64,000 nucleotides of DNA. Origin: Octopus vulgaris (lineage: Eukaryota). Under the pieces are notes generated by a model. That model worked only from the letters and a program-made list of their open reading frames with translations. It ran no database searches and was not told where the DNA came from. The position numbers and the translations under genes are program-made. Below are positions 4,226 to 61,439 of this stretch, in pieces. Numbering within the stretch: position 1 is the first letter of the stretch; the number at the start of each line of letters is the position of its first letter. The DNA lies in contig OX597840.1 of assembly GCA_951406725.2 (NCBI GenBank), forward strand, positions 3,038,001 through 3,102,000, in the 5' to 3' direction.

Positions 4226-4638
4226 CTTTTACTCTTTACTCTTTTACTTGTTTCAGTCATTTGACTGCGGCCATGCTGGAGCACCGCCTTTAGTCGAGCA
4301 AATCGACCCCGGGACTTATTCTTTGTAAGCCCAGTACTTATTCTATCGGTCTCTTTTGCCGAACCGCTATGTGACGGGGATGTAAACACACCAGCATCGG
4401 TTGTCAAGCAATGCTAGGGGGACAAACACAGACACACAACCACACACAAACATATATATATATACATATATACGACGGGCTTCTTTTCAGTTTCCGTCTA
4501 CCAAATCCACTCACAAGGCATTGGTCGGCCCGGGGCTATAGCAGAAGACACTTGTCCAAGATGCCACGCAGTGGGACTGAACCCGGAACCATGTGGTTGG
4601 TTAGCAAGCTACTTACCACACAGCCACTCCTGCGCCTA
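4226..4638 (-). mobile_element. tRNA-derived SINE family A, full length
   Basis: Minus strand: ggcgcaggagtggctgtgtggtaag (A box), ggttcagtccc (B box), internal (TA)/(TG) tract, 3' ggcggtgctccagcatggccgcagtcaaatgactgaaac and short gagtaaaa repeats. Confidence 0.9.
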
Positions 4639-5047
4639 TGTCCTTTATTTCTTCTTAGCTCATATGGCTCTTTTATAACACTTGTCTTTTGCATATAGTA
4701 TTGCTGTGTGTTATGCATATAGCATATAACACTTTCCGTTAGTTTCATTGCTTTGGCATCATCTTATAGTTTTCTTTTCATTCTCGAGGTTTTCGTGAAC
4801 ATATGGGGATTTATATTCAGTCCAAATTTTTTCGTGAAGACAATACCTCAGAATATCATATTAAGAAGATTCTATTCCTATAGCAACTAAAATATTTTTA
4901 TTGTTTTAGAAATCATCAACGATTCGTTTACTGTTTGATTTACTACTTCACATTTATATCTTTTATCGTTTACTTCTTTCAATTATTGGACTGCAGCCAT
5001 GTTGCATCACCGACTCGTATTTTTAAGTTGAAGACGTCGATCCTAGA

Positions 5048-5948
5048 CGGATTAAGTCGATTACAGTGGCCCCAGTGTGTAACTAGTACTTAATTTATCC
5101 ACCCCGAAAGGATGAAAGGTAAAGTCGACCTCGGCGGAATTTGAACTCAGAACGCAGACGAAATACCTATTTCTTTACTACCCACAAGGGGCTAAACATA
5201 GAGGAGACAAACAAGGACAGACAGACGGGTTAAGTCGATTACATTGGCCTCAGTGTGTAACTAGTACTTAATTTATCGACCCCGAAAGGATGAAAGGTAA
5301 AGTCGACCTCGGCGGAATTTGAACTCAGAACGCAGACGAAATACGTATTTCTTTACTACCCACAAGGGGCTAAACACAGAGGAGACAAACAAGGACAGAC
5401 AGACGGGTTAAGTCGATTACATTGGCCTCAGTGTGTAACTAGTACTTAATTTATCGACCCCGAAAGGATGGAAGGCAAAGTCGGCCTCGGCGGAATATGA
5501 ACTCAGAACGTAACGGCAGACGAAATACCTATTTCTTTATTACCCACAAGGGGCTAAACACAGAGGAGACAAACAAGGACAGACAGACGGATTAAGTCGA
5601 TTACATTGGCTCCAGTGTGTAACAAGTACTTAATTTATCGACCCCGAAAGGATGAAAGGCAAAGTCGGCCTCGGCGGAATATGAACTCAGAACGTAACGG
5701 CAGACGAAATACCTATTTCTTTATTACCCACAAGGGGCTAAACGTAGAGGGGACAAACAAGGACAGACAGACGGATTAAGTCGATTACATTGGCCTCAGT
5801 GTGTAACTAGTACTTAATTTATCGACCCCGAAAGGATGGACGGCAAAGTCGGCCTCGGCGGAATTTGAATTTAGAACGTAACGGCAGACGAAATACGGCT
5901 ACGCATTTTGCCCGGCGTGCTAATGTCTCTGCCAGCTCGCCGCCTTAT
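5048..5948 (-). repeat. Tandem array of SINE B units (~178-184 bp period)
   Basis: The tatttcttta(c/t)tacccacaagg marker starts at 5168, 5346, 5530 and 5714. Only the rightmost unit carries the 5' head. Confidence 0.9.
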
Positions 5949-18769: not shown

Positions 18770-19802
18770 CGACCCCAGTGCGTAACTGGTACTTATTTAA
18801 TCGACCACGAAAGACTGAAACGCAAATTCGACCTCGGCGGAATTTGAACTTACAAAATAAAGACGGACGAAATACTTATTTCTTTACTACCCACAAGGGG
18901 CTAAACACAGAGGGGACAAACAAGGACACACAAACAGATTAAGTCGATCATATCGATCCCAGTGCGTAACTGGTACTTATTTAATCGACCCCGAAAGGAT
19001 GAAAGGCAAAGTCGACCTCGGAATTTGAACTCAGAACGTAGCGGCAGACGAAATACCGCTAAGTTTTTCACCCAACGTGCTAACGTTTCTGCCAGCTCGC
19101 CGACTTTGAATGAATGACGAAATTTTATAAGAAATATACATTGATTTCTTTACTACCCACAAGGGGCTAAGCATAGAGGGAACAAACAAGGATAGACAAA
19201 GGGATAAAGTCGATTACATCGACGCCAGTGTGTAACTGGTACTTATTTAATCGACCACGAAAGGATGGAATGCAAAGTCGACCTCGGCTGAATTTGAACG
19301 TAAAAACAGACAAAATACCTATTTCTTTACTACCTACAAGGCGAAATTTGAACTCAGAACGTAGCAGCAGATGAAATACCGCTAAGCATTTCGCCCGGCG
19401 TTCTAACGCTTCTGCCAGCTCACCGCCTTAATAACAAACACTTCTTACTAACTCGGTGTGTGACTGTGAGGTCAATACCAATGCGAGCCATCTTGGGAAA
19501 TTCTGTTCTATCATTGTCCTGGTTTAACCAAAGCCTTGTGCGGAAACTGAAAGAAGCCCCTCGTATATATATATATTTCTTTACTACCCACAAGGGGCTA
19601 AACATAGAGGAGACAAACAAGGACAGACAAATGGATTAAGTCGATTACATCGACCCCAGTGCGAAATTGGTACTTTATTTATCGACCCCGAAAAGATGAA
19701 AGGCAAAGTCGACCTCGGCGGAATTAGAACTCAGAACGTAACGACAGACGAAATACCGCTAAGCATTTCGCCCACCGCGCTAACGTTTCTGCCAGCTCGC
19801 CC
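18765..19802 (-). repeat. Cluster of SINE B copies and partial tandems
   Basis: Repeated atcgacc(c/a)cgaaag(g/a)atg...gtcgacctcgg and tttctttactacccacaagg segments. Confidence 0.85.
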
Positions 19803-20463
19803 CTCGTATATATAATCTAATTATAACTCTTTGGTCGGCCTGAGGCTATATGGTAAAAGACACTTGCTCGTGGTGCCACGAAATGCGACTGAAACCGGAA
19901 CCATGTGGTTGGGAAGCAAATTCTTTAACCAGATAGCATCCTCTAAACAATTACAATAGAGAAGGATACGCGTGCCTTTATAATACTCAGCAACTTACAC
20001 GGCAATTAAGTACATTGGTAGATTCGATAAACCTAAAACTCCTCGGGAAAATCGACGGAGATCCCCATTGTAATATTTTACAATATACACAAAACACTCA
20101 AAGCAACCATACGCTAAATACCAGGGAAGTGTCGCCTCGGTAGGCAAGCTAAGCATGCCTACCTTGAATAAAATAGATCGATAGCAACATTTTCCTTTTA
20201 CGGCGAAATATGCACCTAATTCAATATATGAAGGTCACACTGATTACTGTGCATAAAATGAAAATATATATATTACTCTCTTTTACTCTTTTACTTGTTT
20301 CAGTCATTTGACTGCGGCCATGCTGGAGCACCGCCTTTTAGTCGAGCAAATTGACCGCAGGACTTATTCTATCGGTCTCTTTTGCCGAACCGCTAAGTAA
20401 CGGGGACGTAAACACACCAGCATCAGTTGTCAAGCGTTGTTGGGGGGACAAACACAGACACAA

Positions 20464-20501
<38 letters not shown>

Positions 20502-20688
20502 TATATAAAAGGGCTTAGTAAAATAAATTACTTTGCCACATACTGAACTCATTAGAAATAGTAGCTAAAAAAACTTTTTTAAAACTATTTCTAATACTTA
20601 AAGAAAATCTCTCTCATATAGTGTTTGCTCAATTCAACTCACGAAAGTATGGGGGTAAAGACATTAAAAATCAAATGCAAAGGTTATT

Positions 20689-20740
20689 TGAGAACGTACG
20701 TTTCAAGATTAGTCAACTCGACATTTCTATCATCAGCTCA
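20689..20740 (-). ncRNA. Type I hammerhead ribozyme, canonical core (unit 1)
   Basis: Minus strand reads tgag-CTGATGA-t-aga..gtc..gac..tct-t-GAAA-cgtacg-TT-ctca. Stem I tgag/ctca, palindromic stem III ACGTACGT, GUU triplet. Confidence 0.85.
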
Positions 20741-21247
20741 GAACTCCTTGGTTTGGATTTGAAAACACTGAAAGTGGGAGCATACCCTTTCGGCTTCTTA
20801 TCGCTTCTGAAGATCTGCTCGAAACTAACAGTGCCAGCAAACCCAAAATATGCAAGCGAAGAATTTCTGCTCTCCCCTTTCCACCAGCGTGGGTTAAAAT
20901 CAGTAAACACTATGCTTTTTCGGTAAAATCCGAAGCATTAAATAGAGAAAGATGAATTATAATTTCAACAATTGAGGGTAAAATTAATTAATTATTAATC
21001 AATTTCACCAAGTATTCAGTATGTAAAGGGACCATTTAAGGCGAATTCAAATTATTACATTATATAAAAGGGCTTAGTAAAATAAATTAATTTGCCACAT
21101 ACTGAACTCATTAGAAATAGTAGCTAAAAAAACTTTTTTAAAACTATTTCTAATACTTAAAGAAAATCTCTCTCATATAGTGTTTGCTCAATTCAACTCA
21201 CGAAAGTATGGGGGTAAAGACATTAAAAATCAAATGCAAAGGTTATT

Positions 21248-21299
21248 TGAGAACGTACGTTTCAAGATTAGTCAACTTGACATTTCTATCATCAGCTCA
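21248..21299 (-). ncRNA. Type I hammerhead ribozyme, canonical core (unit 2)
   Basis: Same motif shifted by 559 bp. Stem II tip reads gtcaagttgac. Confidence 0.85.
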
Positions 21300-22114
21300 G
21301 AACTCCTTGGTTTGGATTTGAAAACACTGAAAGTGGGAGCATACACTTTCGGCTTCTTATCGCTTCTGAAGATCTGCTCGAAACTAACAGTGCCAGCAAA
21401 CCCAAGATATGCAAGCGAAGAATTTCTGCTCTCCCCTTTCCACCAGCGTGGGTTAAAATCAGTAAACACTATGCTTTTTCGGTAAAATCCGAAGCATTAA
21501 ATAGAGAAAGATGAATTATAATTTCAACAATTGAGGGTAAAATTAATTAATTATTAATCAATTTCACCAAGTATTCAGTATGTAAAGGGACCATTTAAGG
21601 CGTATTCAAATTATTACATTATATAAAAGGGCTTAGTAAAATAAATTACTTTGCCACATACTGAACTCATTAGAAATAGTAGCTAAAAAAACCTTTTTAA
21701 AATATATACATACACGACGGGCTTCTTTCAGTTTCCGTCTACCAAATCCACTCACAAGGCATTGGTCGGCCCGGTGCTATAGCAGAAGACACTTGCCCAA
21801 GATGCCACGCAGTGGGACTGAACCCGGAACCATTAGGTTGGCATAATTTTCCCCTGTCTTTCAATCTCACTAATTAAGCTACGCAGAGAACTGTTGTAGT
21901 ACACGTGCTGCGTACATTCCTATAACAAAGTTTTCTTTACGAACTATAAAGGCAGAAATAGATCAGCCTTCAACTCAGTTGCGCTTTCACTTTTCGCTTA
22001 CTTTTTTTGTATCTTACTACATAAAGGTCGCCAACTACCCGCCCGCCCTGAGTAGTTACTGACAGCACGTGCCTGCAAAATACGCCATAATAAATGCATA
22101 CAGTCGCAGGCCTG

Positions 22115-34999: not shown

Positions 35000-35890
35000 C
35001 GGAATCTACTAAGGTCATGTTTGTCTAAATACTTAAATATTGCTCACAAGAACTCAGCTTTGTCACACAACCTGAAAATCAAATCAACATACTGGTATCA
35101 GACTTAGGATAACGAATAACATGTCCCTCCTATCTGAACCCTATAGAACAAAGAAACATGTACAGGACTTCATGCATCGCATGCAATTCTCTGGTCAAAA
35201 ATACAGGAATCGAGTATACAGGAGAGCTAGAAAGAAGTTAGATAGCATTATACGTAATTAAACCAGCGGTGTGTGTCCGAGAGCTAAAGACTGAAATAAG
35301 ATACAAAGAGTTTGTTATAAAGCAAATAGGGTGAGCACATTTATAAGGCCGACAAATATCAAGAAGTGATGTTTGTAGAGGTCACAGCCCATGAAAAGCT
35401 ACCCGAGGATTTAGGAAATCTCTGAAGGAGAACAAACTCAAAATTAAGATCGTTCAAAAGCCAGGAAGCTCCATCAAATCACAACTATATAGGACGCACT
35501 GCTTTGAAAATACCATATGCACCAATAATAACTGCATCGTGTGTAAGATTAACCCTAGCATTAACTGAAGAACTAAAAATGTAGTCTACAGCAGAAGGTG
35601 CATAGAGGGTGCTTTTAAAGGCAAGAATATGACACACATTGGGAAGACATATAGAAGCATTGCGGAGAGATTAAAGGACAAATTGAGACAATATGACGAC
35701 AAAAGAAACAGTCCTTTATACTCTACCAACATGCCAAAGACAAACATGGAGCTTCATCAAGTCGACTTAACATCTGCTTTTTATGCAAGCACCCGAAGGA
35801 CCCAGCACTTAGACAAATGCAGGAGTACGTCCTTAGAAAAAAAAAACAACAAACCATCCGCAATACTAAATAGGAGATACACATAGAAGG
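35000..35890 (+). pseudogene. Penelope-like element remnant (GIY-YIG endonuclease region)
   Basis: CTNNNCIVCK linker, then TKNVVYSRRC...THIGKTYRSIAERLK (VVY...YIGxT.R motif). Multiple stops. Confidence 0.8.
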
Positions 35891-38273: not shown

Positions 38274-38275
<2 letters not shown>

Positions 38276-38641
38276 TCTTTTACTCTCTTTTACTTGTTTC
38301 AGTCATTTGACTGCGGCCATGCTGGAGCACCACCTTTAGTACTTATTCTATCGGTCTCTTTTTGCCGAACCGCTAAGTGACGGGGACGTAAACACACCAG
38401 CATCGGTTGTCAAGCAATGCTAGGGAGACAAACACAGACACACAAACACACACATATATACATATATATACATATATACGACAGGCTTCTTTCAGTTTCC
38501 GTCTACCAAATCCACTCACAAGGCATTGGTCGGCCCGGGGCTATAGCAGAAGACACTTGCCCAAGGTGCCACGCAGTGGGACTGAACCCGCAACCGTGTG
38601 GTTGGTTAGCAAGCTACTTACCACACAGCCACTCCTGCGCT
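38274..38641 (-). mobile_element. SINE family A
   Basis: Matches 4226-4638 with an internal deletion near the tail. Confidence 0.9.
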
Positions 38642-39319: not shown

Positions 39320-39740
39320 AAGGGCGGCGAGCTGGCAGAAACGTTAGCACGCCGGGCGAAATGCGTAGCCGTATTTCGTCTGCCGTTACGCTCTGAGTTC
39401 AAATTCCACCGAGGTCGACTTTGCCTTTCATCCTTTCGGGGTCGATAAATTAAGTACCAGTTATGCACTGGGGTCTATGTAATCGACTTTATCCGTTTGT
39501 CTGTCCTTGTTTGTCATCTCTGTGTTTAGCCCCTTGTGGGTAGTAAAGAAATTGGTATTTCGTCTGCCGCTACATTCTGAGCTCAAATTCCGACGAGGTC
39601 GACTTTGCCTTTCATTCTTTCGGGGTCGATTAGATAAGTACCAGTTACGCCCTGGGGTCGACATAATCGACTTAATCCGTTCGTCTGTCCTTGTTTGTCC
39701 CCTTTGTGTGTAGCCCCATGTGGGCAATAAAGAAATAAGA
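39320..39740 (+). mobile_element. SINE B dimer (head plus two bodies)
   Basis: Junction aaagaaattggtatttcgtc at ~39546-39565. Confidence 0.85.
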
Positions 39741-50790: not shown

Positions 50791-52399
50791 AATAACGTTA
50801 GCGGTGTTCATGTTGATATCGACCCTACTCTTTAACTCCTTAATTAGCTTCAGTTCGAGAGCTGCTGCCATGCTGGAGCAACATGCCGTTAATGAAAGTC
50901 CAGATTGTTGCATTGGTGGAGGTATGGGTGGTGGCGTTTGAAGATCGATTTACTATTTAAGCTAGTAGAGGCTGCAGTAGCAATTTCAATCCAAATAACC
51001 ATTATGCCCTTAGTTTCCCTCTACCTCAGCTCTTAAACAGAAGAGCTATAATCAAAGACGCTCCAGTCGTGACTGCTCGGTCATATTTTTATAAGTGATA
51101 TATATATATACATACATATATATACAAACACACGCACACATTATACCACACGAAAACATATACATACATTCACACACAGATACGTATAAACATACATATA
51201 TATATATAAATGGCGGTGCCCCAGCATGGCCACAGCTCATGAGCTGAAACTGGAATCAATCAATCAATCAATCATAAGTTCCTTGCTTTTCCTGATGAGA
51301 AAGCGGCATAATATACTCCTTATTCCTTCGCAATTAGGAATATGCAGCCTTCGAAACTTATGTCGAAAATAAAGAAATTTTGTTAATTCGTCGTTCAACT
51401 CCATTCTTTCATATATTTATATTTAAAAAAAAAAGACATACAAATTTCCACACGAAAGCACGTAACTTCAAACGTGTCTTCTCTGATGTGAATTTGCTAC
51501 CCAGGTATCGGTTAACCAAATTATCCATAACAAGATAATTCATTCAACTACTCAAATATATATATATATACATATATATATGTAGAAAATGGATGTAGAA
51601 AATAAACACACGAACTTATACGAAAATCTCAAACGGACGGAAAACACAGGTCACCAACTTCTTTTCAGTTATCGGCCAGAGGGTCAAGCGCAATTTCGGT
51701 CATTATCGATAATATTACCTCCACTCTGGAGGCACCGACAAGAAACTTGCCGAGATTGGTACCAAATCATGACAATATGTGTGTGTATGTGTGTGTGAAT
51801 AGTGTATATACACACATATATATTTACATATTGACAATCAATAGTGATTAACATGAAATACATAAAGTCACTCCATCCGTAACCATGCTGTCAATTATGG
51901 GTATGCTGGGCGATAATATATTCAGTGCGCTTCCCATTTTGTAAACTTAAGTAAACTTAACTGCTATTTCTTATGAAATGAGCTATTTTTGTTTTGGTGG
52001 TGACGGTTTTATGGCGGGATCACTATAGGAGTCAATGGGGCAGCTATGGTGAGGGTCATGATGGTGAGGCGTATTGATGCTCTTATCATGTTGCACGTAG
52101 CGAGGATTGATTCGCTTATGTCAGTGGTGGTGGTGGTGGTGGCGCTGGTGGTGAAGGTCGTCATCTTGATAGTTGATCTGGTGGTGTTAGTATTTGCGGT
52201 GCTGATTGTGGCCATAGTGGATAAGGTTGCGGTGGTGTTCATGGTGGTGGTGGCGGTAGTGGAGATGTTTGTGGTAGCTGTTGTGATGATACCGGTCAGA
52301 ACCATTGATGCTTTTGTAGTGGTGATGGAGTTAGTCAAAAATGGTGGACAAGGTGTGCTGGTGATGTATATTGTGGTGGTGGTGGTGATGGTGGTGTTG

Positions 52400-59829: not shown

Positions 59830-60610
59830 ATATATTATTTGTTGTAGATGCGTTCAAAAGGGGTCTGTATTTTGTAATAAAGAGACACTTTACTAATTTG
59901 ATGGCAACAGGTTGTATCGTCCCTGAATTGATAGAGGGGAAAATTTGTGAAGCTTGGATTTTTGTTATTGGCGCAAATGTCGATGTGGTGGATGAATGTT
60001 ATTTTTCTGTTGTTTTTTTAATTTTCATCTGGAATCTGTGCATCACTATCCTTTGATGCAGACTGTTTTTGTTTGGCCTATGTATTACTTTTGACACCCA
60101 GAGAAGGTTAGTGAGTTTATAAGGTTCTCCAAAGCATACGTGAAGCTGCTTTTCACTGTAAAACGTTGTACCTGTTTGAAGGAGAACTCTGATCCCTCAA
60201 TTAAATTTATACATATCCTACAGTTGAGTTCTCCGCATTTTTTTTTTACTGACGGCTTCAGTGTTGTTGTTGAGCGTATTCGGGTTTGTGTTAGGAGACT
60301 TTTCATAGATTTGGGCTGTCTCTTGCTTTTTATGATCATGTATGTTTGGAGGATTAAGTTCAATGTTTTGTCCTTTTTTAGCAGGGGAATGTTTTGAAGA
60401 ATGGTATCGAAGGCTTCATTGTTAAGAGGCTTGTTTGTGGATATGTATGGTAGGGCTTTTGGTTGTAAATCCTTCTTTAATTTGGGATGTCTGAGTTCAT
60501 GGATGTTGAGTTGTAGGGCACGTTGAGAGCATTTGTCAATTAGTGAAGGTGGGTAGATCCAGGTGATGAGTGTATCCTTTAGCTCCAGCAGCCGTGTGTC
60601 CCTGGTGCTT
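59830..60610 (-). pseudogene. Penelope-like element remnant (RT thumb, linker, GIY-YIG)
   Basis: Translates RDTRLLELKDTL...YPPSLI...LPYIST...KRQPKSMKSLL...CGELNCRIC...ENLINSLTFSGCQK*YIGQ. Confidence 0.88.
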
Positions 60611-61439
60611 GGGGAGTCGTTAAAATAAGTATCAGTTAAACACTGGAGTCGATGCAATTGATTAAACCTCTCATTCGAAAATGCTGGCCTTTTTCCAAAA
60701 TTTGAAACCAACATTTCGTGTCATGGCGACCAAATTTCTTTATTTTCCTTGGTGGAATATTATACATAGTTCTCAGTCTTCTATTATCAAAGAGTCTCAT
60801 TAGCTCACTTATTCCTTAATATAGCCTACAAAGCATCCGTGTAGAACGTTTCATTTCAAAAAACACCACTAAACTATTTTTTTATTATTATTTTCAGCAT
60901 CAAGCACCGCATCCAAGTTTCAAAACAACAAATCGAAATACAAATTAATTTTGCTCTAAGAAATAAAAAAAATTAAATATTAATGGAATTGCTTGTAATC
61001 GTTTTTATTTATCTATTCAGCATCAAACCTTATTTTCATGAATACCCCATAGCTACTGCGACCCGGTGTTTCATATATTTCTTTTCTCAAATTAATCAAC
61101 AATCTTATTTTACTGTTCTTGCCGAATTGCAAACAGTGAATAAAATTTTTGAGAGGATTCCCAGTAATTCATTCATCTGTGTTCGTGGTGCTTCTTGGTT
61201 TCTTACATTTTTCACAATTATTTTTTTAGTTATTGTTTGCATGTTTGGTTTACAGGTGGGTTAAACCAGGCGATAAAACGTTGCATCATATTAGAGAGAC
61301 ATTACTACTGGATGAGGAGCGGATATCTATGCACATGAATAGGAATAGAGCAGCACATACACGTATAGATGTACACTTTGATCGGACCTCATATATATAT
61401 ATATAAATATATGTATGTATATGGCGGTGCCCCAGCATG

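Follow-up and report, generated by a model that had tools for sequence, protein, structure and literature searches.

A young family of hammerhead tandems in Octopus vulgaris: a probable non-autonomous parasite of a Penelope-like element, perhaps copied from circular RNA

Non-LTR retrozymes, the closest described systems to the locus reported here, are non-coding tandem units with one type I hammerhead each (PMC7229834; bioRxiv 10.64898/2026.07.22.740005), for which a re-ligated circular monomer RNA has been proposed as intermediate (PMC7229834; PMC4209133) and Penelope-like elements have been proposed as the mobilising agents (PMC7229834; bioRxiv 10.64898/2026.07.22.740005). The preprint derives retrozymes from the pseudo-LTRs (pLTRs) of Penelope-like elements, its sample comprising 35 genomes among which molluscs are absent (bioRxiv 10.64898/2026.07.22.740005). 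For animal retrozymes, movement has so far been a matter of proposal as regards the enzyme (a reverse transcriptase, RT), the form of the template, whether circle or multimer, and the role of the ribozyme.

Penelope-like elements themselves carry a tail at one end, generate inverted copies and occupy (TA)n targets (PMC8557442). A Penelope-like protein has been shown to cut and extend both target strands, its RT initiating at two internal positions of the RNA, which mark the limits of the tail (PMC11167929); dimer action is expected of hammerheads with a palindromic helix III (PMC4209133). The literature searched contained neither a cephalopod retrozyme nor paired start sites mapped on a retrozyme, although subscription papers, repeat libraries and supplements may hold either.

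The window analysed here is a 64,000-nucleotide stretch of Octopus vulgaris DNA (GenBank assembly GCA_951406725.2, contig OX597840.1, positions 3,038,001 to 3,102,000, forward strand), and all positions below refer to it. Identity at a period of 559 runs from 20500 to 21702, with five differences between units 1 and 2 and two between units 2 and 3, which bears out the preliminary description of two full, near-identical 559-bp units plus 84 bp in the (TA)n tract of a SINE. The insert can be placed in the (TA)n of a SINE-like repeat since its flanks are the two halves of a repeat that is intact elsewhere in the window (uninterrupted copies lie, for example, at 4229-4600 and 38275-38605). Positions q1-q559 correspond to 20501-21059 on the plus strand, and "sense" denotes the hammerhead (minus) strand, on which the insertion is 5'-truncated at 21702. 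The locus comprises the following parts:

20271..20499, no strand: left half of the host SINE-like repeat, with the (CA)n(TA)n target tract; it joins the right half across the empty site
20500..21702, minus strand: whole insertion, 2.15 units in one arm, with its 3' end left at site B
20501..21059, minus strand: unit 1, 559 bp, the basis of the q numbering
21060..21618, minus strand: unit 2, five substitutions relative to unit 1
21619..21702, minus strand: partial unit 3, 84 bp, the 5'-truncated end
21703..21841, no strand: right half of the host SINE-like repeat
20689..20740, minus strand: type I hammerhead 1, core CUGAUGA at 20736-20730 and GAAA at 20704-20701, palindromic helix III
between 20693 and 20692, minus strand: predicted cut of hammerhead 1
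21248..21299, minus strand: type I hammerhead 2, CUGAUGA at 21295-21289, predicted cut between 21252 and 21251
20693..21251, minus strand: predicted cut-to-cut monomer, 559 nt
20958, also 21517: 3' end A, q458
20501, 21060 and 21619: 3' end B, about q1
20958..21059, minus strand: tail of 102 nt between 3' ends A and B
21060..21119, minus strand: conserved sequence on the upstream side of site B, base-pairing with the tail

Two features of the surrounding sequence may be recorded separately. The plus strand at site B (20501-20512) reads TATAAAAG, a TATA-box-like word facing away from the hammerhead strand that may be due to chance in AT-rich DNA. A tandem SINE-like repeat with a 184-bp unit, akin to the dispersed repeat at about 19590-19800, occurs at 5045-5896 (4.7 copies) and at 39371-39736 (2 copies).

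On the minus strand, every full unit reads UGAG-CUGAUGA-helix II-GAAA-CGUACG-UU-CUCA. Cleavage is predicted to follow the GUU at 20693 and that at 21252, a spacing of 559 nt, and helix I, which in hammerhead 1 measures 4 bp (UGAG/CUCA), can be extended there to about 20678-20750. The assignment of a type I hammerhead to the minus strand of each unit is upheld, but the epithet "canonical" has to be dropped, as the G10.1-C11.1 pair is replaced by U·U (A·A, A-U or G·U in relatives) and helix III consists of 2 bp closed by a palindromic loop. The Rfam hammerhead models gave no match in the unit region at E<=10, and the matches listed for the whole window (150 of 317) were microsatellite noise. With this U·U in helix II and a misfolded best fold, the window ribozyme looks weak on paper: its active fold is predicted at -6.9 kcal/mol against -11.5 for the best fold of the same stretch, a gap of 4.6. 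The helix III palindrome could form an intermolecular duplex predicted at -11.6 kcal/mol, which is in line with the dimer action described in PMC4209133. Further type I hammerhead motifs, with a long helix II, lie at 51292 (plus strand) and 29880 (minus strand); they are unrelated to the 559-bp unit and are probably the ends of other Penelope-like elements.

The unit is neither single-copy nor an assembly artefact, two ways in which the preliminary description could have failed. A search of the assembly (2.8 Gb, 227 contigs) returned 1,622 candidate places, the best 98-100% identical; tandems occur genome-wide, and the unit is present in run contigs under five organism labels. Exact patterns gave 1,403 + 749 = 2,152 hammerheads with an intact core, against 0-1 for reversed-pattern controls, and 2,400 occurrences of the site-A motif, while a conserved 24-mer at up to 3 mismatches gave 5,458. 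Extrapolation from the 45 insertions with a site-A motif in the first 71.7 Mb of contig C1 suggests about 1,800 insertions genome-wide. Of the 201 main-family loci examined, some were selected as best hits and others by motif; outside the 45-locus set, locus lengths therefore err on the high side. The family has at least 21 lineages differing by more than 1.5%, with relatives out to 84% identity; 55 extracted cut-to-cut monomers span 539-566 bp, and arrays reach about 13 units. Twenty loci with the tail motif and without a match to the hammerhead pattern are truncated or variant copies. Beyond the main family, a sister family of about 70% identity and a period of about 560 retains the hammerhead core and the two ends unchanged:

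L336:1207-1760 and L338-L367: sister family, helix II AGA/UCU changed to GGA/UCY

Searches walking to relatives at 85% and 70% recovered only more non-coding tandems. The unit has a GC content of 33%, and the family contains no conserved protein frame and no attached RT frame (201 loci, two RT queries). The family is young and non-coding.

Central to the question of mobilisation are the insertion ends. Sense 3' ends lie at q458 (A) or no more than about a dozen bases from q1 (B), with no fixed position for the 5' ends, and (TA)4 is found within 40 nt of 144 of the 146 3' ends in the first 92 loci; in place of the permuted start points that had been anticipated, the genomic 3' ends are thus fixed at two sites. 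Most insertions consist of two arms joined head to head with both 3' ends outward. Where both ends fall at A or B, 118 of 120 two-arm insertions have one of each, the exceptions being one AA and one BB (p 1e-32), and 18 additional two-arm loci have one end that is neither. The window copy is a one-arm B insertion. In the short insertions L109, L110 and L116 neither arm contains the other, which requires two separate primings and rules out fold-back copying of the first cDNA as a general source of the second arm, though fold-back could explain L293. An intact Penelope-like family of the same genome, described below, has a two-end pattern likewise, its ends lying 34 nt apart among the matches listed.

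In view of the two internal RT start sites described for a Penelope-like element (PMC11167929), ends A and B are most simply read as two RT start sites, one per target strand. Insertion into (TA)n, truncation at the 5' side, a second arm in inverted orientation and 3' ends fixed at two sites together constitute Penelope-like hallmarks, and this family-wide insertion anatomy supports the mobilisation suggested in the preliminary description, that of a retrozyme-like, non-autonomous element by a Penelope-like RT. At the level of the family, we regard a retrozyme moved by Penelope-type priming as very probable.

Selection on the hammerhead was assessed in the 45 loci picked by tail motif only, and hence blind to the ribozyme, 35 of which cover it. 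Propagated substitutions, fixed in all units of a locus, affect 0 of 13 core columns and 1 of 18 stem columns compared with 131 of 366 other columns (p 0.0055 for the core; 4e-5 for the second comparison); the variable hammerhead positions are N7 (U, A, C), the cut-site base H17 (U, A), 10.1 and 11.1. Judged by this pattern of conservation, the ribozyme is under selection, its core being kept across subfamilies and in the sister family at about 70% identity.

Structure beyond the ribozyme is suggested by several features of the predicted 559-nt circle, which folds at -143.3 kcal/mol, a z-score of about -6 relative to 40 dinucleotide-shuffled sequences. Shuffles gave 5.6 pairs with changes on both sides and slid controls 1-3, whereas over the 22 lineages the count is 12 of 154, inflated by relatedness and based on a fold drawn from the same alignment. 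Changes that keep pairing through G·U exceed those giving A·C by 29 to 12 on the hammerhead strand, with the reverse on the other strand, and the sense-strand G·U excess recurs in 4 of 4 reference folds. Between the tail and the sequence upstream, one pair is U-A in 9 of the 22 lineages and C-G in 13. Conservation in the unit is highest in the tail together with the preceding 60 nt, a likely candidate for a protein-binding site.

The distribution of variants within loci bears on the nature of the RNA template. Arms of the same locus differ by a mean of 0.7%, against 5.8% to other loci (47 loci), the opposite arm being the nearest sequence in 27 of the 47, tied in 11 and beaten in 9. In the youngest subfamily, 52 locus-variant events are found in all units, 9 in some and 99 in one; 19 of 29 multi-unit loci with at least four overlapping segments are star-like, without a partly shared variant, and the other 10 have variants common to only some units. 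Unit-private variants are shared between loci at chance level (21 versus 12-25), although, with only about 200 of the estimated 1,800 loci covered, "private" variants may be inherited from unsampled loci.

Most copies run through the predicted cut site: of 134 A arms, 105 pass it, as do 116 of the 141 that start at B. Four of these 275 arms end there, against about 3 expected, genome-wide breaks number 14 at the cut site and 13 at a control site, and the junction through the cut site is exact in the 55 extracted monomers. An apparent cluster of stops at q191-194 vanished both genome-wide (14 versus 13) and in the 275 arms, and a count of 12 cut-site ends in 315 was disregarded because that set includes loci picked for the feature.

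The arms and tandem units of one insertion are mostly a single haplotype and show no extra stops at the cut site, so that a circle is favoured, if unproven; the conserved ribozyme, the free read-through and the one haplotype per insertion, taken together, are best explained by a re-ligated monomer. On these sequence comparisons, we consider a circular monomer RNA the rather more plausible template. The terminal redundancy that had been offered as the mark of a circle does not suffice by itself, as it is expected on any tandem template from a fixed internal start combined with random 5' truncation. For the window locus as a whole, the probable reading is a single insertion of a young hammerhead tandem family that is a non-autonomous parasite of a Penelope-like element and would be copied from a circular 559-nt RNA.

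The strongest competing explanation, which we hold to be somewhat unlikely, is a Penelope-type element whose template is an uncut linear multimer, with rare cutting and with unequal exchange keeping arrays uniform, the hammerhead serving, for example, to release the element RNA from transcripts reading through from host sequence. Read-through at the cut site fits uncut multimers equally well, the ribozyme looks weak, and uncut RNA is the main substrate of the anole Penelope-like element in vitro, where cleavage is not needed (PMC11167929); dimers of retrozymes showed no cleavage in 8 of 9 tested (bioRxiv 10.64898/2026.07.22.740005). The mosaic arrays L293, L121 and L051 also speak for it. L293 (1958-5246) mixes two haplotypes within one arm, L121 has two variants common to single units of opposite arms, and L051 is patchy, with variants scattered over non-adjacent units; to explain these loci together with L152, whose arms differ at four fixed sites, takes either a mixed multimer or template switching, or else gene conversion at a later stage. 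Against this explanation, a linear multimer should never yield daughters exceeding their source, whereas the median arm measures 531 nt in the unbiased 45-locus set and at least 21 lineages have uniform arrays. Nor is there an excess of unit-specific variants common to loci, and the core is kept in every lineage.

Linear cut monomers could alternatively have served as templates if the RT, on reaching the 5' end, jumped to the 3' end of that same RNA, which would account for one haplotype per insertion and for a conserved ribozyme without a ligase step. Stops or scars would be expected at the cut site after such jumps; the missing excess of stops and the exact junctions of all 55 monomers make this improbable.

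Autonomous partners were sought with two RT queries taken from intact elements of the same genome, a choice with which a distant clade could be missed. With these queries, no RT or endonuclease match was contiguous with the unit in 201 main-family loci or 28 sister-family loci; the nearest RT matches lie 292-538 bp from the unit, beyond (TA)n, and what precedes a unit on its upstream side is in every case a further unit, an inversion or the target. The window itself contains one recognisable remnant:

59856-60720, minus strand: decayed RT/endonuclease remnant of Neptune-like type, sharing 79% identity with a young family that is still intact

The remnant's family, which we take to be Neptune-like from its linker cysteines, has overlapping frames of 446 and 784 aa with RVT_1 and GIY-YIG domains, forms 4.43-kb tandems with a 34-nt tail and occupies (TA)n targets. 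By eye, the UTR of the remnant contains a hammerhead with a U3-A8 core variant. A second young intact Penelope-like family (L212, L206-L217), found from a neighbouring locus, has a 727-aa frame and is presumably Hydra-like; it bears its own short hammerhead close to the (TA)n end. Local alignments of the unit to both intact families scored within or barely above shuffles, neither proving to be an autonomous partner with its 3' region, and the supposed link to the Penelope remnant in the window finds no backing here, its young intact relatives sharing no clear sequence with the unit. A short frame at 35569-35886 (plus strand), which we take to resemble a GIY-YIG endonuclease remnant, gave no Pfam match.

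These searches bear directly on the idea that the tandems are pseudo-LTR remnants of a full-length autonomous element, 5'-truncated and then amplified locally as minisatellites, a process discussed for pLTRs in bioRxiv 10.64898/2026.07.22.740005. Hammerhead type, target and tail are indeed those of Penelope-like pLTRs, and long arrays, L051 among them, bear traces of local exchange; but what lies upstream of a unit is another unit and never an RT frame (201 loci; two RT queries), so that the unit is not the pLTR of a full-length element as far as these loci extend, and local amplification cannot make tandems in both inverted arms with fresh A and B ends at dispersed sites. We accordingly judge this origin very improbable. 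Next to no probability attaches to a viroid-like RNA-to-RNA replicon or a small opposite-strand protein gene (134 open codons, plus strand, 20522-20926): the predicted circle is strongly self-paired and the open frame exists, but the 559-bp unit contains no plus-strand hammerhead and hence no ribozyme of second polarity, leaving the earlier term "viroid-like" without support, genomic copies explain the family, and the frame, for which Pfam gave nothing above cut-off, is shortened to 46-64 codons in the divergent subfamilies.

Under the favoured reading of a circular template, the cycle would begin with transcription of a locus with two hammerheads on the hammerhead strand. By analogy with known retrozymes, cleavage by the ribozymes would follow, probably either in dimers formed at the palindromic helix III or with the aid of a protein, after which the monomer would be closed by a ligase. 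A Penelope-like RT-endonuclease, presumably supplied in trans, would cut both (TA)n strands and start two cDNAs on one RNA at the observed end positions A and B, B lying 102 nt upstream. The cDNAs would run through the former cut site for variable lengths, up to the approximately 13 units seen in the arrays, and would, in an order that we infer, finally be joined head to head; alternatively, one cDNA could be lost or be only a few bases long, as in the window copy.

A further lead concerns the variants themselves. Among locus-private variants fixed in all segments, sense A>G outnumbered T>C by 17 to 4 in a post hoc comparison, against 9 and 24 among single-segment variants, and the skew was stable over five settings. 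In 85 new loci it amounted to 14 versus 10 (p 0.22; Fisher against single-segment variants p 0.03), and pooled to 28 versus 14 (p 0.005). It sits in variants common to opposite arms (18 versus 5) and is absent from those fixed in the tandem units of one arm (10 versus 9), and a 3'-G context seen in 8 of the first 17 A>G changes later faded to 8 of 28. A-to-I editing aimed at repeats has been reported in coleoids (PMC9068888); the skew is a possible imprint of such editing, to be treated as a lead only and lending no support to the circle. An extended scenario, in which a Penelope-like RT dimer primes both TA-repeat cut ends 102 nt apart on one circular 559-nt RNA and rolls both ways, each insertion preserving in DNA one particular RNA molecule together with its A-to-I edits and the evolution of the family being partly driven by host editing, is tentative and on present evidence unlikely. 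Should the skew hold, edited RNA would have been written back into the genome.

The wider value of the family lies in its being young, abundant and diverse, so that insertion ends fix two RT start sites within a few bases and display Penelope-type priming directly on a retrozyme. By offering a short defined RNA, start sites and candidate intact enzymes within its own genome, it lends itself to in vitro testing, and the unit represents a natural minimal cargo for Penelope-type insertion.

Set against known systems, the family is a non-LTR retrozyme by all features testable here. With that group it shares non-coding tandems, one type I hammerhead per unit, low GC and a self-paired predicted circle, and a U·U at the base of helix II has also been described for axolotl HHR_Amex2. 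The unit had been thought unusually large, but 559 bp lies well inside the 51-972 bp of consensus lengths reported (bioRxiv 10.64898/2026.07.22.740005); it does exceed the 170-400 nt of the retrozyme circles demonstrated by northern blot, the octopus circle being a predicted one. Fixed paired 3' ends, inverted two-arm insertions and (TA)n targeting of retrozymes do not appear in the accessible portions of PMC7229834 or the 2026 preprint, and the octopus family contradicts the local pLTR amplification discussed in the latter.

In accounts of Penelope-like pLTRs and tails (PMC4209133; PMC8557442; PMC11167929), palindromic helix III hammerheads, partial tandems, inverted 5'-truncated second copies, one-end tails, (TA)n targets and two internal RT starts are all as in the octopus family. 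The latter differs from these elements, as described there, in having no ORF, in a tail of about 102 nt as opposed to 30-40, in AT-rich, target-like start sites where theirs is an AC-rich stem-loop, and in lacking both the G10.1-C11.1 pair and any sequence link found to an autonomous family. Another parallel is offered by non-autonomous Chlamys elements, for example MRC1 of Chlamydomonas, which are likewise non-coding and form multicopy head-to-tail insertions (PMC8557442). These differ in having their 3' ends in common with autonomous families, whereas comparison of the octopus unit with two intact families gave no clear match, and in coming from a group for which canonical hammerheads are reported to be lacking.
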